The notes: a model not told the origin generated them from the letters alone. Counted from the stretch's first letter, positions 1,302-42,895 are shown. The stretch is 64,000 nt of DNA from Amoebophrya sp. A120 (GCA_905178155.1 CAJINV010000005.1:7246989-7310988); one strand, 5' to 3'. Numbers and translations: made by a program.

Positions 1302-1345
1302 TACAAACTCTTCATCTTCACCCACACCTTCGTGCTTTAGTTTCT
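1302..1345. repeat. ~50 bp junction motif, copy 2
   Basis: Matches 512-558 and 21865-21920; overlaps the start of transposon homology through TTTCT. Confidence 0.9.
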
Positions 1346-1802
1346 TAAAAAAACAAAATCCACCCACTTTAGATCAATGCGCAGAGCCGCCGGAGCAAGA
1401 CAGCCGGCGGCCTCGCGACCGGGGCCGGGGCACGGGGAGGATTCGCGCCTTTTTTTGTTCGTGAAAGGTCGAGCGCATGACTTTTTTCTTAGTTGTTGGA
1501 AGCTCGGGCTAAAAGCTCGCGCCACCGGGGGCAGACCAGGTGCAAGAGTCGTCCCTTTTTCCGTGAGGGGCCGAACTCATGACCTTTCTATCTTTTTTGG
1601 TTGGGCGCGGGCGCCCGAGCTAGCTGGTATCGGTATCGGTGCGCTTATTCCGGTCGTGATTCGCCGGGGGTTGCGCCGTGTGTTGTAACAGTAGGCCGAC
1701 ACCACCAGAGCATCGACGCTACCTAGCCTGCGCCGCGTTGGCCATACAAAAACCCCTTGAATCCTAAATCGGAAACATCAATCCGGATGCCTCTAAAACG
1801 CT

Positions 1803-1857
1803 CAATTAGCGGCAAACCCGGTAATGCCTGTGAATTCCAAAAACCCATGACTCTCGC
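1803..1857 (+). repeat. Inner left inverted repeat (CAATTAGCGGCAAACCCGG...)
   Basis: Its reverse complement aligns with 21418-21473 (...CCGGGTCTGCCGCTTATTG). Confidence 0.75.
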
Positions 1858-3328
1858 CGTGCATCGAGCCCTAGTCGCGCTTCATAATGTCCGAGGAGAA
1901 TTGTCTCTGCAAATTTGGCGAACCACGTTGGAAGCGAGCCACGCCCGTGTCGTGTTGAGAAGGTGAAACTTGATTCCCGAAGTTGCAACGTGGGCCAATG
2001 GAGACGGAGATCAGCTGTACTTTTTCTTTCAATCTCTTTCATTATAATTATCTTGTCGTGCCTGAATTAGCATTGGCCTCTCTGTAAGTACTTAGTCATC
2101 AGGAGCTAAATGCTTTATGACTCTGCAGCGCGATGTGTTACGGGTATGACTTTGCATGGTCGAGAACGAAGCTGCGCTATAAACGTTGCCCCCGAAAACT
2201 TCTCCCAGGTGGTCGCGATCCCGCCGAGTTCTGGAAGCGCAAGCATGCGCGGCGACGTCGTGGGCCAAGGGCCGGAGCACAGGTCGAATGTCCTGGGGCG
2301 GGCGGAAGACGCGTGTAAACAAAGGGCTTCCGATGGAGGACTGGTGAAGTGTCTCAGGCAGTGAAAACAAAACGAAAAACGCTGTCTACGTACAAGAAAG
2401 ACCTGTTCTCCAAATATGAAAGCGCTTGCGCATCGCTGAGAATGATTGGACTATGTACGACAAGCACAGGCGTTTTTACTTCTTCTCTCGCTCAAATTTT
2501 GAGAAAGTTTGGAACGCATCCTGGCAGGCACTTGCTGCGGAGCCTGTGGCCTTCTTCTCGCCAGCCGTCAGTGGTGCGTAGTGCTTGCACCGACTGGCCC
2601 GGCGCGCCGACGCTCCTGTTGTCTCGGAGCCGGTGCAATGTTCAGCTGTGGGCCCGATGGAAGATCGTCTCCAATCGTGTCAGACGTGTCTAAGTGCCTA
2701 CGGTGAAACTTACTCGTGCTTTCTAGCATGACAGAACGAGCTCGAGCACTGATGATTGGGCACGAGAGTAGGGGCGCAAAAGGGTAAATAAAAGATCACA
2801 GGAAAAGCCACTGCGCTGCTCTGTCGTGAATGAAGATCGTGAGTCACCACAAACGAAGATCGTGGGGCAGCACAGACGCAAATCGTGGGCAACAGATGAT
2901 GAAAATCGTTTTTCGCAAATCGAGGGGCTCTCTAATCGCAAGCATGCTATCAATTGAAATGAAAACGCTTAAAGCTCGCTGAAATGAAAATACATCACTT
3001 GGAATGAAAGCACTCAACTTGAAACGGAAATACACTAATTTTTTCGCAGTCGCGCGAATTTTCGACTTCTTCACTTTACTTTGCAACCCGAAGACCGTCT
3101 TATTCATTTTATATTGCAACGCAAGGCCAAGACCTCTTTTTGATAAAGCTTAGTAAGTCTCTCAGCACCCTTACGCCCTATCTATTTCGTCCAGCTACGA
3201 ATAAATATCCATCGTCTATCTGCAAACCCACACTACTTTACGCGACATACTTCCACTCAGCGCTGTAAGTAAGAGCCTTCGTTGTATATAATTTCTGTAG
3301 AGCCGCCAGTGCAGACACCGCGCCTCAT

Positions 3329-4197
3329 CATGAACCAACTCCAGCCCCTCCAAGGCGCGCCGCAGGGTGCGGCTGTGGATTGGCAGCAGGCGCTCCTGGC
3401 CGAAGTTGTCGCGGCCGTGCCGGCAGAGTATAAAAAAAAGAGAACGCACACGTCGTACACCTTGCGGAACCGCCTGAAGTTTGGCCTTTTGGCTTTGCGA
3501 CTGGAAGTAGCCGGCTGGGACTATCAAATGCAAAAGTGATATCTGGGTCTGGAAGATTCTAAACTTGTGATGCTGGAGGTGTCTCTGGATTCGTAAAAGT
3601 ATTGCGCGACAAGCAAGAAAAGTAGAATTTGTGCTCCGCGGAGATGGCATTTGTCATGCGGAGGAAGCGCTCTAAAAAGTAAGAACCTGTGATGCTAGGC
3701 CATGCATTGCAGGCATTATGGATCATGCAAAACAAATCTTGCAATCTCCCAGACCCAAACACTTTTGCTTTTGATAAGGACGACATGCGAACAATTCGCG
3801 ACGTTTTGACGACCAAGGAAAAGCACCGAACAGAGAAGGTCCTGAAGATGATGTCCCGCGGGAAGGAGATGGCTTTGGAGGTTTTCCTCCCACAGCAAAT
3901 CGCCGAAGCCTGGAAAATATGGATTGCAAAAATGTCTGGGTCTGGAAAGTTGGAACTTGTGATGCTGCGTTTGGATTCTAAAACAATCTGTATTGCATGA
4001 GCAGCAAAGAGAATAAAAAAAATTTTGCTACAAGGAAAGAGCATTTGTCATGCGGTATAGGCATCAAGAAGTCCTCACAAAATCTGTGATGCTAGGGCAT
4101 GCATCACAGACATCAGGAGTCCTGCAAAATGCGCATGACAGACCTTGGATCCTTCCAGACCCAGACATTCTTCCATTTGATAGAGAAATCTCGGTGA
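3329..4197 (+). CDS. Small spliced basic protein (~110 aa, 3 exons), possibly HTH DNA-binding
   Basis: Removing introners 3522-3776 and 3918-4182 gives MNQLQP...KKKRTHTSYTLRNRLKFGLLAL...AGWDDMRTIR...AWKSR*. The RxxYT..RLK pattern resembles transposase N-terminal HTH motifs (weak). Confidence 0.6.
3522..3776. mobile_element. Introner, family A (TATN4TGCAAAA..TCTGGGTCTGGAAG)
   Basis: Terminal IR, GGAC direct repeat, frame restored. Confidence 0.85.
3918..4182. mobile_element. Introner, family A
   Basis: TATGGATTGCAAAAATGTCTGGGTCTGGAA...TTCCAGACCCAGACATT..TTTGATA. Confidence 0.85.
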
Positions 4198-6513
4198 CCT
4201 CGACTCGTTTCTATGAAAGCGGGGAAGGCTTCGGAGGGTAAGTAGGTCTAGGCACTCAGCGAGCTTCAAGATTTTTCATCATAGTGGTAGTTATAGTAAG
4301 TCGCCGCATTTACCTTGGTAGGGTAAGTAAGAGTGGCCCTGTCCTCCACGCCAACACTTACCTGCTTACCCTCGAGCCTTTCTGATTGATAGCGGCTCTT
4401 GAAGCATTATTCTTCGAAGGAGCTGGATCGGTTACGGGATGTGGGGGCCGGGCCGAAGGTCGTTGTGCCTGAAATACGGGAGTCCGTATATGAAATGTTC
4501 ATCGAGTAGAGCAGGGAAAACAAAACGCACACCCGGCGCGGGCATTTCGGCCCCCGGCTGGGGGCTTCTGGGCTCGGCGCTGAATCGCCTGCAGAAGCAG
4601 GGTTCAAACTCTTCGGAAGAAGTAAGAAGCGAATAGTCTCTGATTGCTGTTGGCAGCAAAGCTTTTGAGGCAGGGGCCGGGCGGCTGTGCCTGGTAAGAA
4701 GAGTCTTTAAGGCTGGGGCCGGGTGAACAAAAGCGCGCTCCCCCGCGCGAGTTGACGCCCAAAGGCCTGCGCCCGGGCCATTGGCCTGTAGAATTCATGC
4801 TCTCCTGCAAATGTTGCATTTCCGCGCGGATCGCACATTTTCGCGCCTTTTGTTATTTTGCGGACGGTTTTAGCGTTGCTGCGTAGCCTGGGCGCAGATC
4901 ATCTAGAAACACACATGGCAAATAGGCCGAAGCTCGCGACAACGCAGCGTCAGAGAGGCGCCCTGATATCCGAGGGAGCCGCGGCTGCTGCGTCTGCGCA
5001 TATTTTGCATCGCGCAGCGGCCGCGTCCTATTCCTTGGAGCCTTTCAGCGCCCGGAGCTTTGGAGTTGCGTTTAGTATTGTCCTGGTAGCATCCTTTCGG
5101 AATGAGCACGAAAGGGTGCCAGGGCACAGCTCTGCGACCACTTAGCACCCTAAAGAATCGCTGCTGTGGCGTTTGCGCATTTTTTACTTTGTGCAGAGGC
5201 CGTTGCCCTTTTTCTGTAGTCGCTACGATGTTTCTTTACTCTTTGGCGAAAGTTTTTTCATCCTATTTCGCCACCATGGCTGGCCCGGGCAAGATTCTCC
5301 TGCTTCGAGCAGTTGCTTGCTTCTCACAAAAGTGCTTGCGCTGTTGCTGAAAGTCCTCGTTGCTGGATTTCTATTGTTGCCTGCGCGCCACGAGAGAAGG
5401 TAATAAATTAATCAGCGCATGGCTGCGCTCAGTCGTGACCTTGTAGACATTGGGTATTTGAAAGGCGCGCTGCTGCTACAAGTGCGCGTGGTTTTGTTTA
5501 TGCAGCGGCCGTTGCCTCTTTTCTGTAGCCGCTCTGGCCGGTTTTTTTGCTCTGTCTTCGGCGTGTCCAACATCTAGCGCAGGCACCGTGCCCTTGGGTG
5601 CCCATTGTGGGTCGGGTTTTGCGACGCGCAGTCCACGCAAATTGGCGTAGGAGGTGCGACTGTCGAGGGTAGGAGTGGGAACTCTCTGTTCTAGTAATTC
5701 AAGACAAAGCGGCGCGGCCAATGAATTACAGAAAAAGGCACGGCTGCTTCATTTGCGCACTTTTTCCACTGCACCTTGGCCGGCGCCTCCTTTCCGTAAC
5801 GTGTCCCCTAGCAGTTTGCTTCCAATGTTGTTTCTCGTAAGTGTTGGACCGCGCTAGTTCTCAGTAGCCTTGCCGAGCAAATTTCTCTTGGTGCTAGAAC
5901 TGGGCGTGGTTCTCTTTCCGTGAAATACCTTGGCTTCGCAAGAAGCAGACTGCCCTCAGTCCCCTTGTTGATGCTTGCTTGGGATGTGAACTGAAATTGT
6001 TTCCATCATCCGGGGAGAGAAGCTGCTGGCGCTGCCCTGTGATTGAAAAGGAGAAGCCTCAGCCATGAGCGCCCCCATTGAGGGAGTAGAAGCGGGGCTG
6101 TAAGCACCCCCGTCCGCAAGTCAGTAGCAACACGTCCGGGGCCCCCTTCAATGCGAACTCTCACCCAGGGGCTCCTCGGGCTTGAAGAGTTGCGAACCAG
6201 GGGACGCCTCTTTCCTACGCAGAAACACAGCGCATTCACTTACTTACAGGCCAGGGGGCGCGTGTAATGCAAGGCACTCACTTACAGCTAAACTGCTTTT
6301 TGCATACCGTATGCAGAAAGCATTTCGTCTGTAATTAGGTCGTGCATCGTCCAGCCAATGTTCATGTTGGCAGAAGCAGCACGTATCATCCTGCCACTGG
6401 TGAGACGGAAAACGATTTACAGAGGGTCTTGGGTGGGAGCTGGAGCCTCAACTTCCGCACCTTTCAAAGTTGCGAAAGCCCCCGCTCGCGGGAGACACAA
6501 AAACAGACTGAGT

Positions 6514-6733
6514 GTCACTGTAGTAACGTCGTGTAATTGCGGTCACACGGCGGCACCATTGTGGCACTCAGTTTTCTTGTTCTCCCGCGCGCGGCCACGG
6601 GAACTTTTCCGACTTAAAGTCAGAAAAGTTCCAGCTCCCGCTTGCGGGAGGAAGGAGAAAGTCGGTTTCACCGTAGTGCCGTCGTGCAAATGCGGCCACA
6701 CGGCGGTGCGCTGGCATTCAGTTTTTTCTCTCT
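6514..6733. repeat. Diverged ~65 bp direct repeat pair
   Basis: CACTGTAGTAACGTCGTGTAATTGCGGTCACACGGCGG vs CACCGTAGTGCCGTCGTGCAAATGCGGCCACACGGCGG. Confidence 0.7.
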
Positions 6734-6748
6734 CGAGAGAGAATTTAG

Positions 6749-9700
6749 GAATAGGAACCAGCTGCGCCACACCAGGGGATCATGTGCGCCAGCACCCTAT
6801 GGAAGCTGCGCATCAAAGCCGCAAATGTTGCGTTTGCGGATTGGATGTAAGCTCTCGAGGGACTGCAAATTGTCAAGGGGCATTGCGATAAGTAGTTCAG
6901 GGTCGATGGCGAGACCAAAGGGCCCCGAGCCTCCTTGGAGGGCCGACCGGGTGCGCAGTTTTGTTTTCCGCTGCATAGCGCATTGCGGTTCGCGAGGGCG
7001 AAGGTCAGTTCGAATCTATTAATCACATTGGGCGAGGCCTTCCGCAAGCAGTACGAACGGGACAACACCACGACCGTGATCGATCCGGAAACCGGCAAGG
7101 AGACGAAAGTGCTGCCGAAGACGCCGAAGATCAACTGGGACTGGGTGCGGAGGTTTATGGTGGCCTATGACCTCTCGCTTCGCGTGCCGAATACCAGGCC
7201 GAAGCTCAGCCCCTACAATCGAAAGGCGCGGATGGGGTCGAGCTGGCTCGCGAGTTGGGGGGTCATTCACGCCCTGGATTGCCTCGGGTGGGCGTGCGAG
7301 CTGGTCAACGTGGACGAGAAGCCGTGCCTATCCTCCGGAAGAATTTGCCGCGCCCGCCCGATGATTGAATGTCCTCAGGTGCTTTGTCATGTTGTTTGCG
7401 TGACGAAAGTGGCGCTGTCTGTGTGTCTGATGAATAGAAGCAAGCACACCTGCAGGCTAGACAGACGCGCGCTAGAATGTGACCTGGTAGAAATTGCATG
7501 ACAGTAGTGACAGCCTGCATGACAGTAGTGGCGCAATAGTTGCAGGCTATTGCTGGGCGGCCATCTGCGTGCGCGGCCACTTCTTCCTTCTATAGCCTTG
7601 GATGAACATGACTTCCACGAAGAAGTGCATATCCTTCAAGGGCGAGGACCGGGTGGAGGTCATTGACAACCACAATCAGTCACGTGCCAGGTGCGCTCTT
7701 TTTTGATTTTGACTTTATTTCGCACCCCAGTCTCGTCCGTTTGTTTTGGTTTTTGTCCATCGCAATGCAGTCTAGTTTTACCTACAGCTGCGTCCGGATA
7801 AACATACATATGAACTCCCTTCACCAAGCGAAGTCCAGAAGCAAGAAATGTTTCGAAATACATACGAACCCCCGCCCTCAGGTTTACCGTCTTAACGATG
7901 TGCTGCTCGAATCAACGGGCGGACGGCCCACCTCCGCCCATCGAGTTGGTGTTTAGAGCTACGGAAGACGGACAAGTGCAGCAGAAGTTGGACGAGATCG
8001 AGAAGCCCGACTGGATGAAATTGCTTACAGCCCCGAAGGGTTCGTACAGCGCGGAATTGTTCGACGAGTCAATCAAGCGGATTGCTTTCCGTAACCGGAA
8101 ACAGAACAAGGTGACTGTGCTGTTTTTCGATCACTTTTCTGGCCACAAGATCCCGCCGCCACACGTATGCGGGGCCCTTTGGGTCATCTGTATTTTCATT
8201 GGTGCCTGCTGCACCGATTCCATCCAGGTATAGTATAGTGCGAGTTTTTTCATTCCCAGGCTTTTAAGTTTCTAAGAGTTTTGCTCCTAAGTAAGCCGCC
8301 CAGATTTTCTACTTCTAGAGCGATGAAGTCAAAGGGCGCCGCAGTACTCAGACTGCTTGACACGCAAGCGCATTGCTACACTGGTTAGACTTCAAATGAA
8401 ATCAATGGCGTCCGCTAATCAACTTCAAATGCGGTCAATGGCTTCAAATGAAATCAACTTCAAACGAAATCAACTTCAAACGAAATCAACAGATGCTTGA
8501 TACGCATGTTCATCGCGCTCTGCAGAATACCCTCCGGGAGATCGAGATAACCACCGACGCCGCGCAGATTCTGCAGCGATTCAGGGAAGGCGGTGGCTTT
8601 CGCATGACTATCACAACGCGGAAGGCTGCGGTTGAGAGGGTACGGAGAGCGTGGCTGCAGTTGCCGCATGCAGAGTACACCAAGTCCTTCCGTGACAACG
8701 GGTTTATTCCAGATGCGGACCCCGAGCAAATCCAACGAGCAATTCGCGACGACTGGACTAGCTTGAAGGAGAAAAACATGAAGTCGATGCTCGACCGGGC
8801 CAAAGGTGTCGCTGCGAAGTATTCGCATTTGCAGCTGCCGTATCCGCGGCAAACGAAAATCGCTGGGCGTATCTGGCTAGGAATTGCAAAAGCATCCCAC
8901 TAGTATAAATTGCATCACAAACGATTTTCTCAGCATGAAGAATTGAGTTTGTCAGTAGGTATTGCCAACTTGGAGAGGAAATTTCTTATGCATGCCTGCA
9001 ATTAGTGCGAGCACTTCCTTTTTGTATGGCAGCAGGTTGCTCTTTAGTTTTTCTTGCATCACAGACGCGGGCTGCGCTCTGGCCTACCTAGCATTCTCGA
9101 CGAGGAAAGTTCGTGCATTTAAGCCTGCTGATTGACTTTTCGGTTCTGCAGGGTATCCCCAGGCCTTTTTTCGTCCCATAAGCGAACCAGTGCGGCGATT
9201 CAGGACATCCGCAGCACAATCATCACGCCGGACTTGCAGCGGATTGGCGACCCGGGGACCGACTTCGAAGGGCTTGAGCAGATGTTTTGGAAAGACTGGC
9301 ATCCTGATGGAGCATCCGGCTTCATGAATGGCGACGACCAGGATTTGGACGAGCACCCAGACAGCGATGTAGAGCAGGGTGGAAACAGGAAGAAGTCGCC
9401 AGTGGCTGATCCGAAAAAGAAGGCCGCCATATCGAAGAAGAGGCAAGAGCTTATCAAGATCGCACGCGGTTCGGGGCTCGTCACAAATCGCGAAGGGGTT
9501 GGCGAGGTGATGCAGGACGGTCGAAAGGTAGCAGACATGAGCCAAAAACAGCTGATGGAGTCCTATGCTGCCCACGCGGCCGGGCTAGGGGAGTTTGGGA
9601 CGCGGGACCGAACGGCTAGGCGGCTTGAGATCGTGAAGGCGCGGGAGGATGAAAATGGGGCCCCAAAGAAGAGTTTATACGAACGCTTTAACGAGAAAAC

Positions 9701-11118
9701 AGTCAGCTCGACGGACTTCGAGGAGGAGATGAAGGAACAGGCGAAAAAAGCTAAAATCGACCAGACGCATATTAAGTTCGCGCGGGCGGCCCAGCAGTTT
9801 CTGGAGAAAGACAGCAAACGACCAGAGCCTGCGAAAGACCTTGCCTTGTTTCAGCCTGACAGCATGCGGAACGCCGCACACGCGAAATTCGCAATCCAGG
9901 CTGCTTTTTGCTGCGACGACAAGAAAGCCCGCTTGATCCATGAATATTGCACCCTGAAAAACGTTATGCTTTGCATATGTGCTTGCGCGTTGGCCTGAGC
10001 GCCGTCACAAATCGCATGACAGATTGCGACTGTGCTTGGTAAATTGCATGACAGATCATGGCTGTGCTCCGTAGATCGCATGACAGATTGCAGCTGTGGC
10101 TGGTAAATCGCATGACAAATTGCCGGAGCCCGCATGGTCCGGGGCCCGCATAAAACACGCACTGTGTCGCAGCGGATGTCGCGTGACAAATCTCAGCTCC
10201 CCAGGAGCAGGCACATTTGCAAAGCACACTCGCGAAAACAGCCCCGGAGCACCCAGCTCACTGCATGTTTCTGCAGCGAAAGTTGCAGGGCAAGGAGAGC
10301 GAGGGCATCGGCCACCTCATTGCAGCCATTGTGAACAGGGTCCAGTTCAGTATCCTGTGCAACAGTATCGCTCTCGTAGTAATTGCAGTCATGCATTGCA
10401 AATTTTCCTCCTAACGTAAATCCGCATAACAAATTCTATTTCGCAGGCTGAGGAAATCCGCATGACAAATTTTATTTCGAGGAAATTTGTAATGCATTTA
10501 TTACAAACGCGATACATTTTGCAATGCATATCCAGACTGGTGGAACAACGAAAAAACGGCGTAGACATGGCGACATGGTTGACACACACAATGGCGGCGG
10601 TTGAGCGGAACCTGACCACGCTAAGGGCCGAGAGGAAGAGATACCTAGCGGAGGTAGCCGCGCATAAGGCTAGGACGCCGGCTGAGCGGGCCTACCTACT
10701 GGAAAAATTGGAGGCAGCGCGGGCCGAGGAGCAGCGCGTCCTGGCCGAGCAGGCACGCAAAAAGGAAAAGGAGAAGCAGGAAAACGAGCGCCGGAATCAG
10801 CAGCTCCAAGCCCCGGGCGCCGCTAGTAGTAGTTCTTCGAAAGCAGGCCAGGGAGGCGCTGCTAGTAGTACTTCTTCGAGAGGAGACCAGCACGCAGGCG
10901 CTGCTAGTAGTACTTCTTCGAAAGCGGGCCACGTGGGCGCTGCTAGTAGTAGTTCTTCGAGAGCAAGCCAGCACGCGGGCGCTGCTAGTAGTAGTTCTTC
11001 AAGAGCAGGCAACGCGGGCGCTGCTAGTAGTAGTTCTTCGAGAGCAGCCCAGGCACAGCAGCGGCCCGCCCCTTCCAACAGCTTGCCATCTTCTTCGGAC
11101 CTTGCTCGCCGGCGGTGA
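6749..11118 (+). CDS. Spliced pogo/Tigger-like (CENP-B HTH + DDE_1) transposase with long C-terminal extension; 5' end unresolved
   Basis: Exon translations give WVRRFMVAYDLSLR (CENP-B HTH), LVNVDEKP (D1), RFTVLTMC..DGPPPPIELVFR, VLFFDHFSGH (D2), CTDSIQMLDTHVH (D3; about 34 residues from D2) and AW..SFRDNGF. GT-AG introns at 7691-7881 and 8228-8492, plus introner-type introns. Confidence 0.85.
9965..10228. mobile_element. Degenerate introner with internal 32 bp tandem array
   Basis: TATGCTTTGCATATGTGC...GCACATTTGCAAAGCACA IR; GCATGAC at 10014, 10046, 10078 and 10110. Confidence 0.65.
10351..10530. mobile_element. Introner, family B (TATN4TGCAAAAGTATCG)
   Basis: TATCCTGTGC...GCAATGCATA flanked by TTCAG/TCCAG. 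Confidence 0.85.
10816..11048 (+). repeat. 39 bp coding tandem repeat x6 (GAASSSSSRA..)
   Basis: GCGCTGCTAGTAGTAGTTCTTCG repeated in frame in the last transposase exon. Confidence 0.9.
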
Positions 11119-11529
11119 TTGCATTTGATGGGGTGCTCGCAGCTGGAACGCACACTTCAGAAGCATCTTTTTATCACACTACACAATTATCTTTTTATCG
11201 TTGCTCTCTCTACCTTCGCCTGTTACCACGATAGATGCATACTCTCGAGCTCGCGCTTTGATTTATACTACTACTTGTTCCCACACCTACAATAGCTTCG
11301 CTTTCTTGTCGATTGTTAGCCACCCCCTTGGCGTCAGCCGTCAGCCGAAGTGTGGCAAGATTGCTTTTTTGTTGCTCATCCTGCACGCCTGGGGCCTGTT
11401 GGGCTCCATTGCCCTGCCGTGTTCACCTAGGTAGCTGGCCCGCCCACGTAGCAAGCCGGAGACCCGGCCACCTAAGGGCGCGGGCTTCGCAGAGCCAGCG
11501 GGCATCCGCTGGTCGGTGCGCCCCTCGGC

Positions 11530-11737
11530 GCCGACGTTTTGTCACAGAAGTGGGCCCCGGGCACTCCGTTAACGCGACCTATGGGTACCCATAGGTTGTG
11601 TTTATCGTGAGCTGTTTTTGGACTTTTCGGTGTGCAGGCAAAAAGCCGAAAACAGGCTGCGATAAACACGACCTATGGGTACCCATAGGTCTGGTTAACG
11701 GAGTGGCGCAGGGCCACTTCCTGGACACAACGTCGGC
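11530..11737. repeat. ~208 bp foldback element with two internal ACCTATGGGTACCCATAGGT palindromes
   Basis: GCCGACGTT...AACGTCGGC arms pair along most of their length. Confidence 0.85.
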
Positions 11738-11977
11738 CTACGTCACGGGGATGCTCCTTGATCTACTTAACACGACCTTTGGCCATGCAAAGGTCATGTT
11801 AACCATTTTTTTTTCCACGTATATGCAGGAAGTCCGGGCCCCAGCGCTTCAGTGCCTCCCGACGTGTGCATGGGGGCACTGCGTTGGCAGACACTTTTTT
11901 CTTCCCCGCAGGAGCGGGATCTGGAACAAAGTTTGAAAAGATGTCGAAGGAGACATCTTTTCAAATTTTTGTCGAGC

Positions 11978-12064
11978 GGCCTCGATCAGAGGTCGGCCTC
12001 GATCAGGGGTCGGCCGCGATCAGAGGTCGGCCGGCCTCGATCAGAGGTCGGCCGCAATCAGGGG
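11978..12064. repeat. 17-21 bp tandem repeat x5 (GGCCTCGATCAGAGGTC)
   Basis: Direct reading of the sequence. Confidence 0.85.
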
Positions 12065-12281
12065 TCACCTGTTGTCCGCCCCGAGGGCTCGTCAGTTTAT
12101 TTTGTAGAACTGAGCAGCACCAGCTTCGCCTTCGCGCGATCCAAATCGCGTGAAAGCGGGGGCAAGAGATAACCCCCTACATCTTGTAACCTTATCGGGT
12201 TTAGGTATCTTTCTGCTTTGCTGGTCGCGCCCGCGGGGTCAAGGGGGTTCAGTTACCAACGGGGTCAAGGGGGTTTAGTTA

Positions 12282-12432
12282 ACTGCCAGTTTTGTTTTCC
12301 ATGCGGCCTTTCGCCTCGGGTGGCAAAGGCCGCATGGAATACAAAACTGGCAGTTTTGTCGAGCGGGAACTGGAACTTTGATTTCAAAGCTCCAGTTCCC
12401 GCTCGACAAAACTGCCAGTTTTGTATTCCATG
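12282..12432. repeat. Overlapping hairpin array (ACTGCCAGTTTTG / CAAAACTGGCAG)
   Basis: Two consecutive near-perfect 30-45 bp stems sharing an arm. Confidence 0.85.
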
Positions 12433-13423
12433 AGGTTTGAGTTTTCAGGCGGTTCCTTCTCGCCACCGAAATGGTGGAGAAGGAGCCGCATGGAAATTAA
12501 AAAAGCAACGGTCTGGTGCCGCCGGTCGAGGAGAATGGCGTGTAAATTCGACCCGGCGCAGGGATACAGTACCCGTTGAAGAGCAAAATCCAAAAAGAGC
12601 GTCATCATTCCACACGTTTTGCATTTCCGATCGGCCTGCCCAAGCGGGAAGCAATACTCACAAATACTCATTATTCGAAAGAATTTCATCCATGAGACGC
12701 TCCTTCTGCAATACAAACCAAGAACCTCTTCACTCATGAAAAGTCTCAAAAGCCTCCTCGTGCAATACAAATCAAGCAGTGCAGCCACGGTCGTGACTCC
12801 TTCTTCCGGCAATACAAACCAAGAAGAAACTCAGCCACGCAAAGTTCCTCCGAGAATCAATACAAATCAAGCAGCTCCTCAGCCATAACTCGTTCCGTCG
12901 GCAATGCAAACGATCGAGAAAGAAGTTCAGCCGCGAACAGTTCCGCCTGGAATCAATATAAATCAAGCTCTCAGACAGGTCTTTCGAAAGAGAGAAGGAT
13001 CGAAATCGTGGTCCGGCCGAGAAGGCGTCGCTGCGATAGAAGCAGATCTATCACCGATCCCCTTGGAAATGGAGCGAACGGCGCAGGTAGCGCATGGCAT
13101 GAGAAAGCCGACGTCGGTTCGTATGACTGGTATTGCGCGACCGTGGAAAAAAAACGCACGGACCAAGAATGATCCGCAAATGCGCATAATATGCGATCCG
13201 ATTGACATTTCATCTGCGCCGGAAATAGCAGAAGAGGCCTACGATCCGAGGAGCGAAGCGACCTGGTGCGCAACAAAGCCAAAGCGCTCTTCTCCCCTGG
13301 TAAAAAACCAGCGACGTTCATCTTCTTCATCTTCCACTGCAAAAAGCCAGACCATTCAGCTTCAGGATTTTTTCCACACCTTCCACTGCATAAAAAACAA
13401 CTTCAACTTCTATTCGCCGCAAA

Positions 13424-13729
13424 ATGTCCGACCAAGAGATGATGGAGATGGAAACGCTCATCAACGCCTCCGAAGCCGCCGGGGCGGAGGAGGAAATGAT
13501 CGAGGACGAGCTTGGGGGTTGGTTGGTCCCTACGCCGAAGACCCGCGCTGCTCCGAAGGCGAAGGCCCGCGCTGGAATCAACTTGAACCAAGCCGACTCG
13601 GCACTCTTGTCGACTTTACTCGGGCCGGAACAGGAGCAGGACCAAGAATTGACCAGCCGCGAGGAGGAGAATATCAAGTTGATGGGTTTTACTGCTGCGC
13701 GGAACGAGGAGCTGGGTACTTTTTCTTAG
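13424..13729 (+). CDS. Acidic hypothetical protein or first exon (MSDQEMMEME...)
   Basis: GC3-rich ORF with AAAATG start; possible GT donor near 13716. Confidence 0.55.
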   Translation: MSDQEMMEMETLINASEAAGAEEEMIEDELGGWLVPTPKTRAAPKAKARAGINLNQADSALLSTLLGPEQEQDQELTSREEENIKLMGFTAARNEELGTFS

Positions 13730-14222
13730 TTTTTCGTATTTTAGTTTTTGTTTTTCTAATATGCAAAAAAGTCCATTTGTTTGTGTGTTGAGTAAAGTTG
13801 AGTGAGCCTACCTCTATTGCCAATATATGTGAGTTAACAATTTGCTTTCAAGTGCGAAAGAGTCTCGGTCTGGAAGGATGCGAACTTGTGATGTGTGTCG
13901 CGGATCATGCAACAATCTGTGTTGCATGACTTGCAAAGGGTCCCCATTTCTCGCCATGTTGAGAGGGCATTTCTCATGCACAGGGGCTGCAGAAGCTGTG
14001 ACGCTAGAGCGTGCGTTCCAGACTTGCTGGAGCTTGGAAAAACTGCATGACAAATCTCGGAATCTTCCAGACAGAGACCCAGAAGCTGTTGTATTTGTCG
14101 AAAAGATTCTCAATTTGTCCAACACCAAACCCATTAAAATTTCCTAGGTTTAATTGTGGGGCAGATCGAAAACTTGTACCACTCCGAGGCAGAAGACGAG
14201 ATATGCGGAGCTACGGGAGTGA

Positions 14223-14424
14223 TACCCAGGAAAAAACACCCAATCCCGTCCATTTTTTGCATGATATTTACACCCAACCCCCAGCCTATTTACCAACTTA
14301 CAGCATTACGGCGGATCCCATGAAAACCCGTGGCCTATTTACCAACTTACAGCATTGTAGGTTGGCAAATAGGGCGGGGGTGTCATGCAAAAAATGGACG
14401 GGATTGGGTGTTTCTTCCTGGATG
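14223..14424. mobile_element. Introner-like element, family C (TATCCAGGAAAAAACACCC)
   Basis: ~50 bp terminal IR; same ends as 35245-35356. Confidence 0.75.
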
Positions 14425-14595
14425 CAGGGTTCTCAAGGTGAATGTTCTCTACAAACCACGCCGGTTTGTTGAGCAGACCGAACACACCAACGGGCCCCCC
14501 ACCAGCGTACTTCAGCTGCTGCGTTCATGTGTTTCCCCCTACTTAGGTTCTCTTTTTTCTTGCTCTGTGGGCCTGCGCCTTGCCATCTTCTGAAA

Positions 14596-17500
14596 ATGCC
14601 TCAAGTGAACAAGCATCTACCTAACAAACAGCAACGCATCCTGAAGATGGCCTTCAATATGGACCCGAACACGGTGCGGGTGACCATGATCAAGAACGGC
14701 AAATGGTCGAAAACGGCGGGGATTTTTGCTATTTACGAGCTTCTATCCTGTGCAAAAGTGCCGCACTAGTATAAATTGCGTCTCTCTCATCTCAACGTAA
14801 ATCAGCATTACAAACTCAAACTCCGTTGCGTTTATCTTTCTCAAGGTCAATCAGCATTACAAGTTCAAGTTTGTAGCTCTGGGCTAATTTGTAATGCAAT
14901 TCATTGCGTTTATGCATTACAAATCTCGCTCTCGTCATCGTAAATCACGCATTTATGAATTGCAAGTCTCTCTCTCGTCGTAAATCAGCATTACAAATTC
15001 AAATTTGTAATTCTGCGTTAATTTGTAATGCAATTTATACTAGTGCAATGGTTTTGCAGTGCATAGCTTCTGCTGCGGGGAAAACTGCGCTTCGACCAGA
15101 ATGGGGCGTTGGAAGTCGGTGAGGGAGAGAATTGCTTCAAGGAAAAGGACTACAAGAGGCTGGCGCGCGAAGGCATTTTCGTGGCCGTCGACGAGGTCGA
15201 CGACCTGATGGGCTTGATCAACAATCTGGAGAAGTTGAAGGTGTACTCCTTCGAGGCGGCCGACCTCATTTTAATCTGCAAAGGTGACGATCGATGATGA
15301 TGATGATGATGATGATGATTTTGCTACCCAGAAGGCCAACACGTCTGCTCATGCGATGACGCAAGTGGTTCCTTTTTTCGAGAGAAGACAGAAGATCGTG
15401 CTGAGGCAGTATATAATGCACTTATCTATTTGAATTCATATTTTCAGCGTGGGAAGCGATCCGGAAGAAGTGCGAGGACGGAGGGGGCTTGTACGGTGCC
15501 CAAATTGTGCTCCTCAAATTCCTGTACTTTGGATTAGTTTTTGATTTCTCTATCTGATTGTCCTCGCCCCATGTTGTTCGTCGGTGCCTTCCCTCCGAGA
15601 TGAGAGAGTTGCTAGTGCAGAACTCCACTTCAATTCGCACACAGGGACCAATACAAGGCGTTGACCAACACCGGATATGAGTTCACGACGACCACCGCCC
15701 CGCAGTACCAATCGATCGCAAACATGATCGCCCAGGTATAAGATTAGCTATTGGAGCATTGCAAACCCCTTGTAGAGTGACACTTTTGGTAAAGCGTTGG
15801 TCATCGGCCGAGCTGAAGCATGACAAAGTAGCTAAGTCTTCGCGTGACGAGTGCGCTCAGCATGACAAACGCAGTAAAGTCACCTGGTTCAGAGTGCGTT
15901 TGGAGACTCGTCATCATTTCCGCTCAGAATGCCATCTGTAAATACTCATCAGGAAGGAGACAACAAGGCCAACGGGTTTGCGGACTGGTAAGGAGGGCGC
16001 ATACTTAGAGTTTTTTTATTGGGGCCGATCGTAAGTGGCTGTTTCTGGTCGATTAAGTACTTCGTCCTGTTGCTTTCGAAAAGAGAATATCCACGCCTCT
16101 GCTCCAATCAATCGCACAGCATCCGTGCGGCCAACCGGAAGCTCGACGTGCCGACGGATTCCGTCCTGAACCAGCTGGGCTTCCTGTATCAGCTTGCGGT
16201 GGATTGTCGTCAGTCGGGGATTAAGAAGGTATTATGGACTTTCTAGGAGTTCCGAGGCCCCATGTCTGGTTTTTACAGTAGTGGCGTTCTTGAGGGCGTG
16301 TTGATGATTTTGGTTCTTGTTGTTCATCTCAAACTAACACTTTTCAACGCGCAATCAAAAACCCAACAGCGCACGCTCGACTGGTTGCTGGTCTGCCCCT
16401 GGCACCAGCACAGCCTGTACCACAAAAAGTGCCAGAAGTTCAAGCAGACCGACGCCGCAACTTACATGAAAGACCGGAACGCTTTTTTCGCGCACCAAGT
16501 CATCGGGGAGACGTTGGACGGGGCGGAGTACACCAAGGCCGTGTACAACAAGCGCTACGACGTCGGGAAGCACCTGAAGACTATGGTAGAGAAAAATGCA
16601 GGGGTGGTATATTTGTAATGCAAATACGCGAAATGCGGACGGATCTGTTATGCAACTCTGGGGCTCGACTATGTTATGCGAAAGGAAGACGGACTTGCTA
16701 TGCAAAGTGAATCATGGATCTGCCACCCGCCCGTATTTTTCCGTGTGATGATGATGCTGGAAGAAGAGCAGTGCGAGTCGTGGGATGCGCCGGTGATGAA
16801 AGACATTTTCCCCAACAAAAACGAAGACGACTACCTGCAGTTCATCTGGGCCAAATATCAGTACAACCGGGGAAAGTTCAAGACCGCGCTCATCAAGTAC
16901 TGCGAGGACAACAACTTGATAAGCAACGCAATCTTTCCGGAACGCCAGGCAAAAATGTTTCTCAAGAAGAGGGCGTCTTCCGTGGCGGATGCCTGGTTCC
17001 AGGCCCCCCCGCCGGAAGAGGAGCTGGCTCTGTTGCGGCAGCAGGATGACGATGCCGGGGACGCCGGTCCCGCGGAGGAAGATAAGGAAAGCGACAAAAC
17101 GGGGAAATTGGACCCGGCGGACTGGTATTGGGCGAACAAGTGCGCTCTTCCGCCGAAGAAGATCAAAATCGTCGACAATTTCGGCCAGGACTATGATGAC
17201 CCGGATTTTGCCGAGCCGCACCAGGACCACAACCGCAACAAAATCGATCCGCTGGTCACGCCAGATGAAACCGTACAGCTTTTTTAGAAATGAAGCGCCC
17301 GTGCCTGCTGCTACTTACCTGCTCTGCTATTTCAACAACTCTTCTAGTTTTTCACGGGCAAGAGCGCAAGTCCCAGTTTTTCCAACTAGTAAGTATTTCT
17401 CGTGCCTCCGCTGAGAATGATGTTGCGAGTCCAAAGCGAAGCCCTTGCTCTTAAAATTTAAAAACAGCCCCTGCACATCGTGGACGTCAACACGCTATGC

Positions 17501-19657
17501 ATTGCAAAAGTACCGCGCTCGTATATATGCATTACAAATTTCCTCAGCATGAGACTTTTGTAATGCTGAAGATTTGCCTCATAGTTACATTTGTAATACT
17601 GATTCTCCTTAAGACAAAGATTTGTAATGCATGATTTGCAGTGCTGATTTGTAATGCTGATTTGTAATGCAAGTGCTGATTTGTAATGCAAGTGCTGATT
17701 TGTAATGCATGGCTTGCATTCATACGAGTGCGATACTTTTGCAGGGGATACACGTTGAGCGTGCTGAACGACAGGGGCATCGGTGGGAAATTTCCCTTCA
17801 AGGTGAAATACTCCGGGGGTGCACAAGATATGGTGAAAGAGACGGCGAAGCTGATCAAGAAATACTCTGACAGCCACTTCTACATCTTCTTGGGTGGGAC
17901 GGATGAGCAGGCGCTGAAGGACTTCAAAGATGGCATGGGGGCGGCCCTCGTCCGCGAGATCGACTTGGTTCCGATCAAGACGGACGAAGAGAACAACCAA
18001 TACGCATGGCAACAGTCCGCGTAACTCATCGCGCCCGCGCAGGGGCGGAGTTTTCTGCAGAAAGGGTTCGCGCACTAGAGAACTAAAAAGGCACGCTCCT
18101 TTTTCCCTTTTGGAAATAAAGACGCAACCCCAATCCCCCGCTGCGATCCCTACTATCTAGCGTGATGATTTACTTTCTTTGTTGTGCATATCTACCACCA
18201 CGATGCGGTCTTCATCGAGAAGGCGCTGACGAATATCCCGAAGATGCCGAGGAATTTGTATTACCCCCCGATCCCGAAGGATATGGAGTTCTCAGACGTT
18301 TACTTTGGCATCTTGTTTGTAATGCAAATTTAGTCTGTCATGCAAGTCGAGTCTGCATCTTGGGCCACAGCCAACAAGTAGTCGCTTTCGCGCAGACCGG
18401 GTTTCTAAATAATGCAAAGAAAACAGACCACAGCCAGGTCCCCACTTTTATCGCTCCTCCTCTTGCGTCGCCTACTCGTGAAAGGTGCTTAGCGGCTGAG
18501 AACTCCATATAGGAATCAAGGCGCCACCATGCCGGGCCGATCGCAAACCTGCGAGCGGAAGAAGAGAAGCAGGGCTTCGTGCGGAAACAGGGCGTGAAGT
18601 CGACGTCCGTGAAGGTCGACGATGAACAGGACGGTACTTATTTATATGGAGATATAATTTCAAACTCCCCTTTGGGGTTTTGCTTTCTATATACGGGGAT
18701 CTACTCAAGCTCCATTTTGGTTTTGCATTGCAATATATGAAGTTCTACTTTTTCGCTTTGTAGTTCTCGCTCCTTTATTCTATTCGTGTTCGCCCTCACG
18801 TACATGAGTTCATGCGCTCCCGATTTGAAGGGGAGTTTTTGTAGGATTGATTGATGCAGCCTGAACCCCAAACACAGATGGCTGGAAGGCCGAAATGAAG
18901 CCGAAGCGCGTTCCGAAGGATGAGGACATTTGCTACCGGCGGCACAAGCCGGACAAATTCTGGAAGCAGGTCGCAGACCTCGCTGGGTGCACTGTCGTGG
19001 TTGGCCACTACATGGACGGCCAGCGGGCGGCCCTGTACAAAATGGACCGGAAAAAGTACTTACTTGCGTTTTGCCCTCCTCTTTTCACTGACAGTAGCTA
19101 CTTCCTTCTGTTTTTGCAGACAGACAGAGCAGTGCCATTTTTTATCAGACAGCCCGTTATTGCTTCTGCAAGAAACGCCAAATCGCTCGACATACAGGTA
19201 CTACGGCATGGCGATGACGGCGGCCCACAAAAGGTACCACCTGGGTCAGTTCAAGTTCCACTCTTTGCGGCTCGAGGTGACTGGAGACATCTTCGGGCTG
19301 CACAACCTCACCGCGCTGCAGAAAGGGTACTACGAGTACTACGAGGAGAACCCGAAGAAGAGAAACCTGTACCACATGCAAGTCGTATTCTTAGACGAGC
19401 AGTTAACGCCGGCGCAGCTGCAGCTGAAGAAACAGGGCAAGTTGGTGACTCCGGAGACCCGGCGTGCCCCCGGATCCGGTCCGTTTGACAGGCCGGGCAG
19501 CGAATTCATGCAAGCGATTCGCAACACCAAGTCGGGCCGTGAGGGTGGGATCAAGCGGAAGGCCGAGGAGGGTAGCACCGGGAAACCAAAAGCGAAGGCG
19601 AAAGCTGGGGCCAAGAAGACGACGCAGATGGATTTGTTGAGTCTGGCTGGTACTTAA
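14596..19657 (+). CDS. Multi-exon hypothetical cargo gene (one or two genes) inside the giant element
   Basis: GC3-rich exons MPQVNKHL.., LEVGEGENCF.., DQYKALTNTG.., TLDWLLVCPWH.., VMMMLEEEQ.., LSVLNDRG.., HKPDKFWKQV.., ending KKTTQMDLLSLAGT*; frames joined across introners 14744 and 17496; no family recognised. Confidence 0.65.
14744..15065. mobile_element. Introner, family B
   Basis: TATCCTGTGCAAAAG...TTTTGCAGTGCATA; GCTTC duplicated. Confidence 0.85.
17496..17750. mobile_element. Introner, family B
   Basis: TATGCATTGCAAAAGTAC...GATACTTTTGCAGGGGATA; CACG duplicated. Confidence 0.85.
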
Positions 19658-21417
19658 GCTCCTCGCATTACCTCCGAGCAGAAGCACTTCCTTGAAAAAT
19701 AAACATCGCTTTAGTGCTTTAGAGCTGAAGCTGCTCCTTATTTTGAATTTCGACTTTATAGCGACGACCTTAGGCGTCTAGAGTGACAGTGCGAACCTAG
19801 AGGCTTGCGCCCTGCGTGACAGGGCGCAGCTACTCAATGAAAACGCACACGACGCGACGCTCTTCGGTCGGTTGCTTCCATCCTTCAGCTCTTACTATGG
19901 CCCGCACAAGCCCTGGCACCCCGGAGGCTTGAGCGGTAGCGAAATTGTGCTCATTCACCCACAGAAGGGCTACAGTCGTCACTCTGACTGCGTCGCGCGT
20001 AAGTAGATAGCAGCTGCTCTGTGTTGGATTCCTCGATCGAGATTCTGCTTCTCAATATACTCACAGGTTCCCTGAGCGGTGGTGCTAATCAGCCGTCGAC
20101 GGGCCACGAAGAAGAGGAGAATCTTTTCCCGTCCCTGGGTGGGGCCTCTAGCTCCAGCAGCTTTGGCCCAAACTGACTTTATTTTTTTTATAGAAATGAG
20201 AAGACTTCCTTCGGCAAGCAACGGCTTTCAAAATTAGCTTCCCCGACTTTTTTTTACTTAGCAAGGCCAGGAAGGAAGTAAGTATCTTAGACATGGCGCG
20301 ACAAGAAAAACGAGGCAAGAACTCCTTCAGTCTTTTGTTCATAGTCGGTATGCTAATCTTCAGTCGCTGCCCAGTAGGAATCCAAACGTGAAGAAGTACG
20401 AAAGAACGCGCTTTGTTCTACAGTCTTATGATAGGCACTACATATGTACGGTCGATAATGAAGGTTCTCATCTCCATTTCTGTGAATTCCGCGCCGCGGA
20501 CTGCGCAGAAAAGTGGAGCACAAATATATAGAGTCACAAACCCAAAGTCGTTTTTTGACATGCAAAAAATCACACTTCAGTACCACACCACCACTTCTTC
20601 GCACGCTTTGTTTGGGTTTCCCTGTGCCTCGCCAGGAAAGCACAAGCAGGGCGTGGACATCTACACTGCAACGTGCTTTCTATCTCAGAAGTAATTTCAT
20701 CTAGATAAGAAATCCAGAACTCGCGCGGAATACTTAGTGGCACACAGGCGCGCTCGACATTGCCACGCCGTGATTTATCGAGCTCGCGCAGCGAATATTC
20801 GGAGCGGGACACTTCAATGGCCATTACTTTTATCAATGCTTCCACCTATAAAAAGTAAAAGACCGCGCTCGGTGGAAATTGTAACTCTACGTTGAAAATG
20901 ATTGAAGAGAGTGACTGTCTTCGCGTGAAAGATGTATTTTCAGACAGTCGAAGGTCGCCGTGTTGCAGCTTCGGAACTGCCGTGGCCTGTTCTGCCTCAC
21001 TGGCGGGCGCGAGCCTCAAGGAGCTTTCCCGCGGGCAGTCTGTGCATCCCGGGTGCCAGCACAGCCCCGCGCTTTGTGTAAGAACGAAGAGTGCGCAGCT
21101 TTAAAGCCGCGGGATCGGTTCGTTCTTTTTTTCGATGTAGGTAAAGATCATGAAGTCGTCGCGCAGGTCGTAGAGCGTCGTGGCCGATCGTCAAGCAAGT
21201 CGCGCTAAACTCGTACGCGCAAAGAAGCTCGCGCCGAAAAGTGCGAAACCTTCGCAGGCACGGATTCGCACCCAGAAGCCCCTTGCTCATCGCAACAGGC
21301 CGGCAGCGGGTCCTAGATCGTTTTCGCTGCGTTTGTGTTCTTAAGATGCGCCGCGCTGATTTTCGTCTGAACGAGAGATCGCGCAAGCCTTTGAGCGAGA
21401 AATCCTGAAGTTTTTGA

Positions 21418-21473
21418 GCGAGAAATCATGGAAGGGTGGATCCTCACAGAGTAACCGGGTCTGCCGCTTATTG
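21418..21473 (-). repeat. Inner right inverted repeat
   Basis: Pairs with 1803-1857. Confidence 0.75.
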
Positions 21474-21864
21474 CCTTACTCAAAGTAAACCCTGAACCCT
21501 TTGCGACCAGACGCCCACGCGGAGTACTCCCATGAGCTAGCTGACGGCCCCCGCTGCGTGACCGGGTCCGGAGCGTGGGCAAGAGAGGCGCTGCTCCAGT
21601 GAAGTGCAACGCCCATGACCTTTTTTTTCTTCGCTGCCCGGGTGCGCGCAGCGCGCTTCCCGGCGGCCACCACCTCCGACCGCCACGACCTACTGACCCC
21701 CGGTCACGTGGCGTCCGGCCGGCCGGACGGACGTGTCCCGCCCGGTCGCGTCTTGGCTCCTTGTTACCTTGCAATAATTTTTAGGGCAGGGGACCTAAGG
21801 CCCACCCAGCTGGGTGGGTCGAAGGTCCCCTGAGGACCTAAGCGGACATTTTGTGGCCCTCTTC

Positions 21865-21920
21865 TAATTCAAATACAAATTCTTCATCTTCACCCACACC
21901 TTCGTGCTTTAGTTTCTGAA
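21865..21920. repeat. ~50 bp junction motif, copy 3
   Basis: Begins at the TAA directly after the outer TIR. Confidence 0.9.
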
Positions 21921-22536
21921 ACTAAACTCAGCCCATGCGGCCAAAGAAGTTGCGGCGCAGCCGCTGTTCGCGTAAATATTCGCCGTAGAGCCGCCCCCCA
22001 CCTCTCGCACTGCCCGACGGAATTCGGGCGATCTTGGGCTGAGTTTTTGTCTATTCATGTTTGAGGCCAATAGGCGGCTTTTGTGCTTGTGACACATTTT
22101 CGCTGCGTGTTTTGCCGGCCTCTTTCCTATTCTGGAGTGCTCTTCTCGTCGCGCGCTCCCTATGGCAGGCAGAGGCGACGGCCCCGACGGGATTCCATCT
22201 GTCTCCCGATATTGATCTAGGGCGAAAAGTGTGGTGGGGTTGTCGGTTTTTGTGGTTAGTCCTGGCTAGCGGTCCCCAATCCTACCAGGGTGACACTCTT
22301 GGGCTCTTTCCGCAGCAGATGAGAGGAGACTTCATGTGGGCAGAGGCAAAGGCTTGGGCGAGAATTGGGATAGGATTTTGCGTGAGTTGAAAAGAAGTTA
22401 GAAATGAGTTGGGAAAGAGTTGAAAATAAGTTAGAAATGAGTTGGGAAGGAGTTGGAAATGAGTTAGACGTACTTAGTATCCACGTTTTGAACTCTTTCC
22501 TAACTCCTTTCCAACCCTTTCCCAACTCCTTTTTGA

Positions 22537-22736
22537 AATTCAAAAGGAGGGTTGGGATTTTGCATGAATTCAAAAGGAGGGTTGGGATTTTGCATGAATT
22601 CAAAAGGAGGGTTGGGATTTTGCATGAATTCAAAAGGAGGGTTGGGATTTTGGGCAAATTCAAAAGGAGGGTTGGGATTTAGGACGAATTCAAAACGTGG
22701 GCTGGGAATTTGGGTGAATTCAGAATGAGGGTTGGA
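22537..22736. repeat. 30 bp minisatellite (AATTCAAAAGGAGGGTTGGGATTTTGCATG), 5 good and 2 degenerate copies
   Basis: Head-to-tail copies with no spacers. Confidence 0.95.
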
Positions 22737-23670
22737 CAGGCCCGCCCTGGCAAGCGGATCTGGCCTGCAAAATTGGCGGGCGCGCCTTCGGCGCGCGGAG
22801 GAGTTCGTCTTTGTTCCTCTTTCGTTTTGCTCCGGGAGATGACTTGTCGCGCCGGCTTTCGGAACTCTCGATCTGGGACCTTTCGGTGAGGGCAATTTTT
22901 TGGGGCGGAGACTCTGCCTCGCGTCGTGTTCGACATGTCGCGTAGTCTGTGGAAAGGAATACTGGGCGAAGCCGCAGGAGTTTTTTTCTCCTCGAGCAGA
23001 ATATCGATGCTACCCACGCGCCCAGGTGTGCGCCTCCTTTGTGTTTTTCCCCGGTGTGGATCGGGCCTTCCATTTTTTTTTTGATGTGGCAACGGCGCAG
23101 AAATGACTGTCCCCGAAAATTGCGCGGGAGCTCGCTTTTTCCGCGCTTTAATACATCTTTTCCGGACCCCACATTTCCAAAATTGAAGACTTTTGAATTC
23201 GTTTTGAATTAGTTTTGAAAGCAAATTAATGCTCGGGCGCTTCTTGATTAAGTAATTCAAAATCAAATACAAATTCTTCATCGTCAACGTTGCACTTGTA
23301 TCTCCAACCGTCGATGAGCAGCGTGGAGAACATGTTGGCCGCAGGAGCAGCAATTCCTGCACCGTTGGCCGCATGCATACGGGAAGATATCCGCAGCAAA
23401 TTTCATGCCTGGTTGGTGAGAGAACGCGTTGGCTCCTGCTCTGTGAATTATCATTCATCGAGCTACTAGACTTATCCTTGTTGGCGTTCAAGATAGGAAG
23501 AATAATAGGTGAACTAGTAGAACTCTAAAGAAGTTTAAGTTGCTGTAAATTACAGCTGTAGTGAGATGGAACAATGACATCAAGAAAATATTATCCATTG
23601 TGCTCTAAATCTACGTACAACAGCACTCTCTGCGCCGACCACGTGTACAAATTTGCGATGCATAGCTCAT

Positions 23671-23801
23671 TAGGAAATGCAAAAGCATCGCACTCGTATA
23701 AATGCATTACAAATTTCCTCAGCATGAGAAAACCAATTTGTAATGCGGATTTGACTTAACAAAAAGATTTGTAATGCATGATTGCACTACGAATACGATA
23801 C
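23671..23801. mobile_element. Truncated introner, family B
   Basis: TGCAAAAGCATCGCACTCGTAT start; right end stops at ...ACGATAC, where the junction motif begins. Confidence 0.75.
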
Positions 23802-23845
23802 AAATTCTTCATCTTCACCCACACCTTCGTGCTTTAGTTTCTGAA
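23798..23845. repeat. ~50 bp junction motif, copy 5
   Basis: Identical core to 21865-21920. Confidence 0.9.
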
Positions 23846-42813: not shown

Positions 42814-42895
42814 TAATTCCCTCGTAGTGTTTGTGCTTTATTATTCTAAGGCAGCATTCCTCCCTGTGCTAGGAACTAGGTAAACAAATAGGAGA

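Follow-up and report, generated by a model that had tools for sequence, protein, structure and literature searches.

A candidate relic of a large pogo-type transposon with a predicted, introner-split transposase gene in Amoebophrya sp. A120

Transposons of the pogo superfamily are compact, with reported elements of 1.20-5.20 kb, and those of the Fot type are flanked by a TAA target site duplication (TSD) in 341 of 385 cases and carry terminal inverted repeats (TIRs) of about 100 bp in FotC (PMC7386202). In Amoebophrya, a genome study reported two putative transposases in strain A25 and none in A120, and the absence of an A120 transposase was used to rule out a general transposase-driven spread of introners (PMC7789003). 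We analyzed a stretch of 64,000 nucleotides of Amoebophrya sp. A120 (GCA_905178155.1 CAJINV010000005.1:7246989-7310988), called the window in the following, which is eukaryotic, has 50% GC and is rich in inverted-repeat elements of 180-320 bp. A 20.5-kb stretch of this window, at 1341-21864, is a real and well-assembled composite that holds a predicted intact pogo-type transposase gene and an orphan gene, both enclosed by the arms of a 1.15-kb element family that moved recently. We consider it likely a single, one-ended relic of an unusually large pogo-type transposon. The features that carry this reading are the following.

1341-1795, plus strand: left arm, an internal part of the 1.15-kb family without its first 376 bp and left TIR
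1803-1857, plus strand: left copy of an inner imperfect inverted repeat, pairing with 21418-21473
3330-9998, plus strand: predicted transposase gene of pogo type with 9 exons and 823 codons up to the first stop, catalytic spacing DD34D; its 5' end had been taken for a small helix-turn-helix (HTH) gene
14596-19657, plus strand: gene 2, predicted 14 exons, 860 amino acids, no internal stop, no homologue
21418-21473, minus strand: right copy of the inner inverted repeat, pairing with 1803-1857
21485-21864, plus strand: right arm with the right TIR, matching 42430-42813
21865-21867, plus strand: TAA adjoining the right TIR, with a paralogous uninterrupted site at 512-514
41662-42813: complete non-autonomous 1.15-kb element with a TAA TSD at 41659-41661 and 42814-42816

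The original prediction described the arms as the two halves of the 1.15-kb element. Both arms do match it at about 92% (359 of 388 aligned bases for 1341-1795 against 42038-42426, with 58 bp extra in the arm, and 348 of 378 bases for the right arm), and the two matches are consecutive and in order in the small element with only 3 bp between them. The left half is incomplete, since the first 376 bp (41662-42037) including the left TIR are missing, and no copy of this part was found near 1341. The left arm joins its flank, a local repeat, at a 5-bp microhomology. The right TIR lies at about 21775-21864 and shows one change from the family TIR, near its end. In a pogo element the transposase is expected to lie between two TIRs, and only the right one is present here. 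Moreover, a check for the same genes between the same repeats at other loci did not find them, and the interior was single copy in the one DNA read run used for copy numbers, which is possibly from the window's source sample and in which copies below 85% identity are invisible. As the stretch falls short in both the number of TIRs and the number of loci, its status as a giant mobile transposon is that of a candidate. The description as a giant multi-gene element was overstated, given two genes, a third of the length made up of later nested insertion and the loss of the left TIR.

Assembly of both inner junctions is supported by short-read contigs. The left junction is bridged by one contig (1692-3571), and at the right junction a contig of 3,869 bp continues beyond 21199 and, judged from its size, as far as about 21582, so that bridging is inferred here from length and allele depth. 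Across the interior, unbranched contigs without differences reach up to 6,250 bp. Neither a second long copy nor an empty site was seen in the DNA run at 85% likeness or at three family loci in a second assembly.

The transposase gene is split by inserts of the inverted-repeat kind in which the window is rich. These elements start with TAT, have a run of A about 10 bases in and carry a direct repeat of 4 bp that is shifted by one base. Introners of A120 have been described with a TAT...AAA inverted-repeat motif and a 4-bp direct repeat (PMC7789003), and the nested inserts of the window are alike in both respects (PMC7789003; PMC12130899). For the gene model, five inserts bounded by TAT/TAG were removed by a fixed rule (the element plus 5 bp), together with two GT-AG introns. 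Spliced in this way from 3330, the frame stays free of stops for 541 codons, and one more intron, with ends chosen among several frame-keeping options, extends it to 823 codons with an end at 9998. The spliced DDE_1-type transposase that had been proposed between the arms is present as this predicted open frame. The small HTH-like gene proposed beside it (3330-4506) is no separate gene: one relative matches in order at 3417-3509, 4396-4506, 6983-7222, 7880-8227 and 8490-8825, and 3330-4506 is therefore the N-terminus of the transposase. The nested features within and around the genes are listed here.

3522-3776, 3918-4182, 4212-4391, 7329-7594 and from 8870: TAT...ATA introners in the transposase gene
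4507-6977: insert of 2,471 bp with imperfect terminal inverted repeats and introner geometry, single copy, splitting the transposase HTH
10535-11118, plus strand: open reading frame (ORF) with a low-complexity tail, possibly a last transposase exon; its match to an A25 relative is weak and not above shuffled sequences
11530-11737 and 12281-12435 (span 11530-12435): hairpin clusters, with a few related copies elsewhere in the DNA run
14744-15065, 17496-17750 and 18282-18509: introners in gene 2

The protein predicted by the model is 33% identical to the A25 protein CAD7965843.1 (E 4e-70) and 31% identical to the AT5 protein g6152 (E 1e-71). All three aspartates of the catalytic triad (D265, D383 and D418, giving DD34D) are kept and are conserved in a relative (P0004). 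When the catalytic exon was searched against the ESM Atlas, the top match was DDE_1 (0.96), as were 27 of the 30 matches. Assignment to pogo was based on a DDE_1 catalytic domain and a DDD triad with a spacing of DD29-56D, and the transposase has both. In Pfam, no transposase exon of the window reached the cut-off, and the exons alone gave no DDE_1 match. Matches under the cut-off were DDE_1 in the relatives (E 0.0085 and 0.047), HTH_Tnp_Tc5 in the AT5 relative (P0005, E 0.0063), in the region aligning with the window protein, and HTH_Tnp_Tc3_2 in a window exon (E 0.0025). A transposase gene split in this way could therefore escape domain scans. RNA runs with the same species label (X4-X6) covered only bits of introners at low identity and are uninformative on expression. 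The gene is predicted to encode an intact DDD enzyme hidden by introners.

Named relatives of the transposase were found in Amoebophrya only. A search of 1.84 billion representative proteins returned three matches, two of them real; the third (P0003) was rejected as a chance match to SdrD_B repeats. A profile search gave three proteins, all from A25 and on three contigs, among the best 7996 candidates scored. Two of the A25 paralogs are 92.7% alike over 261 amino acids, are annotated as truncated and end before the third aspartate, which may be the state of decaying transposon copies; annotation errors could give the same picture. Being several, dispersed and partly truncated, the A25 paralogs resemble transposon copies. 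No viral relatives of the transposase exon were found, and word-based protein searches with this exon and the longest exon of gene 2 returned nothing, which is weak evidence.

The small element in the window has TIRs that are 94.7% alike over 94 bp. Other copies were sought with an exact 25-base TIR pattern in metagenome contigs, which yielded four loci, three of them distinct, in one other assembly. One site (L167, the same as L166) holds a full short copy with 1135 of 1146 bases identical (99%), different flanks and a GAA/GAA duplication; at two more (L165 and L164) a single end is visible, with TAA and CAG, respectively, beside it. Family hallmarks are thus TIRs of about 90 bp and 3-bp TSDs (TAA, GAA). 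Such TSDs flank both two-ended small copies (TAA/TAA and GAA/GAA), the triplets adjoining one-ended cases are TAA, TAA and CAG (n=3), and TAA occurs at three of the five sites overall. Since copies that are 99% identical stand at different loci, some transposase moved them recently, and the family is, by these sequences, recently mobile. The three distinct loci comprise a complete short element, a short-junction copy with one TIR and a copy that ends with its contig after 358 bp, and they match the 20.5-kb interior only on introner-type repeats. In L165 (1-231) the copy ends about 125 bp before its right end and is followed by unrelated sequence, which makes it another one-ended copy.

Read depth in the DNA run (X1) was about 200 at the short-junction region, compared with 25-30 in the flanks. 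Four of the contigs listed bridge the short junction, including the window's own, from which the other three deviate at 18-28 positions over some 200-250 bp. The summed depths suggest a fifth bridging contig (depth 29.9) and one contig on the left-arm side only (24.1); contig depth does not equal copy number, and the sums rest on the contigs listed, besides which there are 105 further pieces. The family also includes further internal-deletion variants, for example one seen in a contig of depth 81, from which 179 and 252 bp are missing, and its TIR bins are deeper than its internal bins.

The inner inverted repeat of about 55 bp had been noted roughly 10 bp inside the breakpoints, and our analysis places it 7 and 11 bp inside them. 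The two copies are identical in 41 of 57 columns (72%) and in 18 of 20 in the outer part. This is above chance, as among 4955 inverted pairs of 100 bp drawn at random from the window only 5 reach such a score, and the best match of each arm of the repeat in the window is the other arm. Inspected by eye for TA, 3-bp, 6-bp or 8-11-bp duplications, the adjoining bases contain no clean TSD, in agreement with the original prediction; as a 3-bp TSD they agree at two of three positions only. The 3 bp that stand at the breakpoint in the short form have been exchanged in the long form, with no duplication.

Arms that abut in order around a transposase gene point either to a deletion from a long parent or to an insertion into a short copy. 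We favour the former, with about even confidence: the 20.5-kb stretch would be a relic of a large pogo-type cut-and-paste parent and the 1.15-kb family its internal-deletion derivative. The locus would work like a pogo/Fot parent together with its miniature derivative. The parent, with a length of about 14.5 kb when nested inserts are not counted, would have inserted at the TAA at 21865 and gathered introners that splice out, and both frames would therefore have stayed open. Its left end would then have been lost by a microhomology deletion, so that the unit is likely immobile now. The short form may have arisen when the DNA between the inner repeats was deleted, an event that pairing of these repeats in gap repair could have directed, and would then have spread in trans, with the transposase at the locus as the candidate source of the activity that moves the small family. 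The outer ends appear to suit the enzyme inside, as a 3-bp, mostly TAA TSD and a TIR of about 90-100 bp correspond to Fot-type pogo. The original prediction left both origins viable with a slight preference for a deletion derivative. Both remain so, and the preference gains support from the pogo/Fot-compatible hallmarks of the outer family and the degenerate inner repeat without TSD. GC and CpG content across the junctions does not separate the origin models.

Several observations weigh against such a parent. The left TIR is missing, and the long form is known from a single one-ended copy. The interior is single copy in the DNA run, with 19 of 30 bins at a depth of 19.5-34.4 beside 24.9 and 29.5 in the small-element flanks; the remaining 11 bins contain introners (eight), hairpin repeats (two) or the left arm (one). 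The short junction is present at four or more loci, probably five, whose divergence from the copy in the window reaches about 12%. Being common to diverged copies, the short form must date back at least to the time when the long arms diverged, an age that is also compatible with insertion into a short copy at a later stage. Two of the sites, GAA and CAG, deviate from a strict TAA, 3-bp TSDs of the form TWA/CWG also mark PIF/Harbinger and Nuwa elements (PMC4482050), and the outer ends could belong to another enzyme. Furthermore, no link between gene 2 and transposition was found.

The best surviving alternative, which we regard as rather unlikely, is a separate element of 19.7 kb, bounded by the inner repeats and carrying both genes, that entered an existing copy of the small element. 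It is consistent with the old short junction shared by several diverged copies and would account for two breakpoints that lie 7 and 11 bp from a repeat pair which beats chance. Moreover, the contig of depth 24.1 was seen on the left arm and not on the right arm and may represent another interrupted copy. Nevertheless, an inner repeat that is only 72% alike and has no TSD is a poor fit to a later insertion when the arms around it are 92% like the small family. No TSD of any length is evident, and the 3 bp at the breakpoint were replaced, not duplicated. A pogo enzyme normally leaves TA or TAA. In addition, the DNA run has a single copy of the left subterminal DNA that starts at 1867, and no family of short derivatives with the inner repeat was seen.

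Slightly less probable still, in our estimate, is that the interior is host chromosome, comprising a domesticated pogo-derived gene and a host gene, which a rearrangement or the repair of a break trapped between the halves of a small element. Domestication is frequent among pogo transposases (PMC7386202), and a host origin would agree with the single-copy interior, with full-length relatives in distant Amoebophrya strains and with frames that are open despite many introners of mixed age, whose 4-bp repeats agree at anything from 0 to 4 of 4 positions. Conversely, all three catalytic aspartates are kept, and the A25 relatives show the number, dispersal and truncation described above. The G+C content at third codon positions (GC3) is 0.71 in the transposase gene and 0.77 in gene 2, above the 0.54-0.67 of the flanking DNA, a small sample of five ORF stretches and one long ORF, all putative. 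A chance capture would also leave the inner repeat at both breakpoints unexplained. An older pogo element with the inner repeats as its ends, lying inside the outer element and excised imprecisely from one copy to make the short form, would account for the coincidence of breakpoints and repeats, for the additional 7 and 11 bp and for the filler of 3 bp, and is nonetheless improbable since it requires a pre-insertion outer element, which was not seen, and since the flanks of the inner repeat agree at only two of three positions.

The proposed multi-exon gene at 14596-19657 was recovered as gene 2, whose model involves 7 GT-AG introns, 3 introners that were taken out by rule and 3 hand-tuned boundaries. 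Sequence searches of Pfam, PHROGs, the ESM Atlas and the PDB gave no homologue or family. A possible resemblance to a tyrosine recombinase motif received no support from Pfam, PHROGs or the Atlas; a custom tyrosine recombinase profile missed gene 2 and also its positive control of lambda and Cre. One Pfam match, BRCT_3 at E 0.16, had no further support, and the reading of gene 2 as a BRCT protein was dropped. Single-sequence folds of two exons were poor (pLDDT 44 and 57), and fold searches with the second exon found common alpha/beta arrangements only (best Z 7.0). Gene 2 may be cargo, an accessory protein or a host gene. An ORF upstream could belong to it:

13424-13714, plus strand: ORF of 97 codons, GC3 0.74, which may be a 5' exon of gene 2 and is left out of its model

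Beyond these two genes, no further gene with homology support was found between the arms, and Rfam had no match in 1-24500. The hairpin clusters expected between the arms are present. Removal of the 2,471-bp insert by the introner rule restores both the frame and the homology of the transposase, with a codon-exact split point. If spliced, this insert has about tenfold the length of a usual introner; it contains internal hairpins and a Cys-rich ORF of 199 codons (6292-6891) without codon bias or a convincing family match. Together with the introners and hairpin repeats it makes up about 6.4 of the 19.7 kb (limits approximate), which leads to the estimate of about 14.5 kb for a parent with both ends, or 21 kb with the nested inserts.

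Outside the arms, a short repeat surrounds the unit:

505-558, 1299-1349, 21865-21921, 23798-23845 and, partially, 23260-23286: local repeat of 40-57 bp, five copies, 90-100% identity

Its minus strand is open as an acidic peptide, the DNA between the copies is unrelated, and the repeat may represent an exon that was duplicated or a target that was hit several times. Beside the first unit, at 569-615, short look-alikes of the inner repeat and of the outer TIR core are adjacent, possibly by chance. Directly right of the unit (22386-22735) follow an inverted repeat (22402-22532) and a 30-bp tandem array. Far downstream, 60716-63406 is an intron-free ORF of about 896 codons without Pfam match, unusual in this intron-rich window, which we take to be possibly part of a retroelement.

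If the 20.5-kb stretch does derive from a long parent, the upper size of pogo elements would rise from some 5 kb to 15-21 kb, which is three- to fourfold the largest size on record, and a cargo gene would be added. We put forward, more tentatively than the parent itself, that such a transposon of 15-21 kb, with another large gene whose family is unknown, has persisted in Amoebophrya with spliced introners, including one of 2.5 kb, throughout its genes, and still supplies transposase for its 1.15-kb derivatives. Independently of the parent, the locus provides a predicted intact DDD transposase hidden by introners of the type described for A120. Genes split in this way would, if the prediction holds, explain the lack of a transposase in the A120 genome study (PMC7789003). 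The argument against a transposase-driven spread of introners is thereby open to retest. The ends and 4-bp repeats of the introners differ from the outer TIR and 3-bp TSD of the small family and do not point to this enzyme as a mobiliser of introners. No description of the element was found in the literature searched, which subscription journals lie mostly outside, or in the portion of PMC12130899 covered.

Among known systems, the ciliate ITm elements Sardine/Thon, Tec and TBE are also alveolate DDE/D transposons with extra ORFs between their TIRs. They encode Tc1/IS630-type DDE enzymes, are present in several to thousands of copies and measure about 6.7 kb in the case of Sardine (PMC3464196; PMC7325037). 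They also carry a tyrosine recombinase ORF; the possible resemblance of gene 2 to such an enzyme found no support in the databases named above. TIR transposons of similar size with extra genes are the En/Spm elements of Chondrus, with 16-20 kb and 4-5 ORFs (PMC6431247), and ToxhAT with 14 kb (PMC12506042). Both belong to other superfamilies, and mobility of their large forms is documented or implied by families, in contrast to one one-ended copy here. PIF/Harbinger and Nuwa elements have a 3-bp TWA/CWG TSD and TIRs that start with A or G (PMC4482050); the TAA and CAG sites and the G start would fit, whereas GAA/GAA does not. Tc4/Tc5 elements are associated with a TNA target site. Moreover, they combine a PIF-type DDE enzyme with a Myb/SANT protein, while the locus has a DDE_1-like enzyme and the exons of gene 2 gave no Myb/SANT match. 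Fot/Fot-like pogo elements share with the locus the DDE_1 domain, the DDD triad and, if the outer ends belong to this enzyme, a mostly TAA 3-bp TSD, a TIR near 100 bp and non-autonomous derivatives (PMC7386202; PMC7325037). Their CENP-B/Tc5-type HTH was seen here in a relative of the window transposase, in the match under the cut-off. Unlike reported elements with one or two transposase ORFs, the locus spans 20.5 kb (about 14.5 kb net) with a second gene of 860 amino acids, and it is further set apart by its DD34D spacing, the TSD variants GAA and CAG and its introner-split genes.

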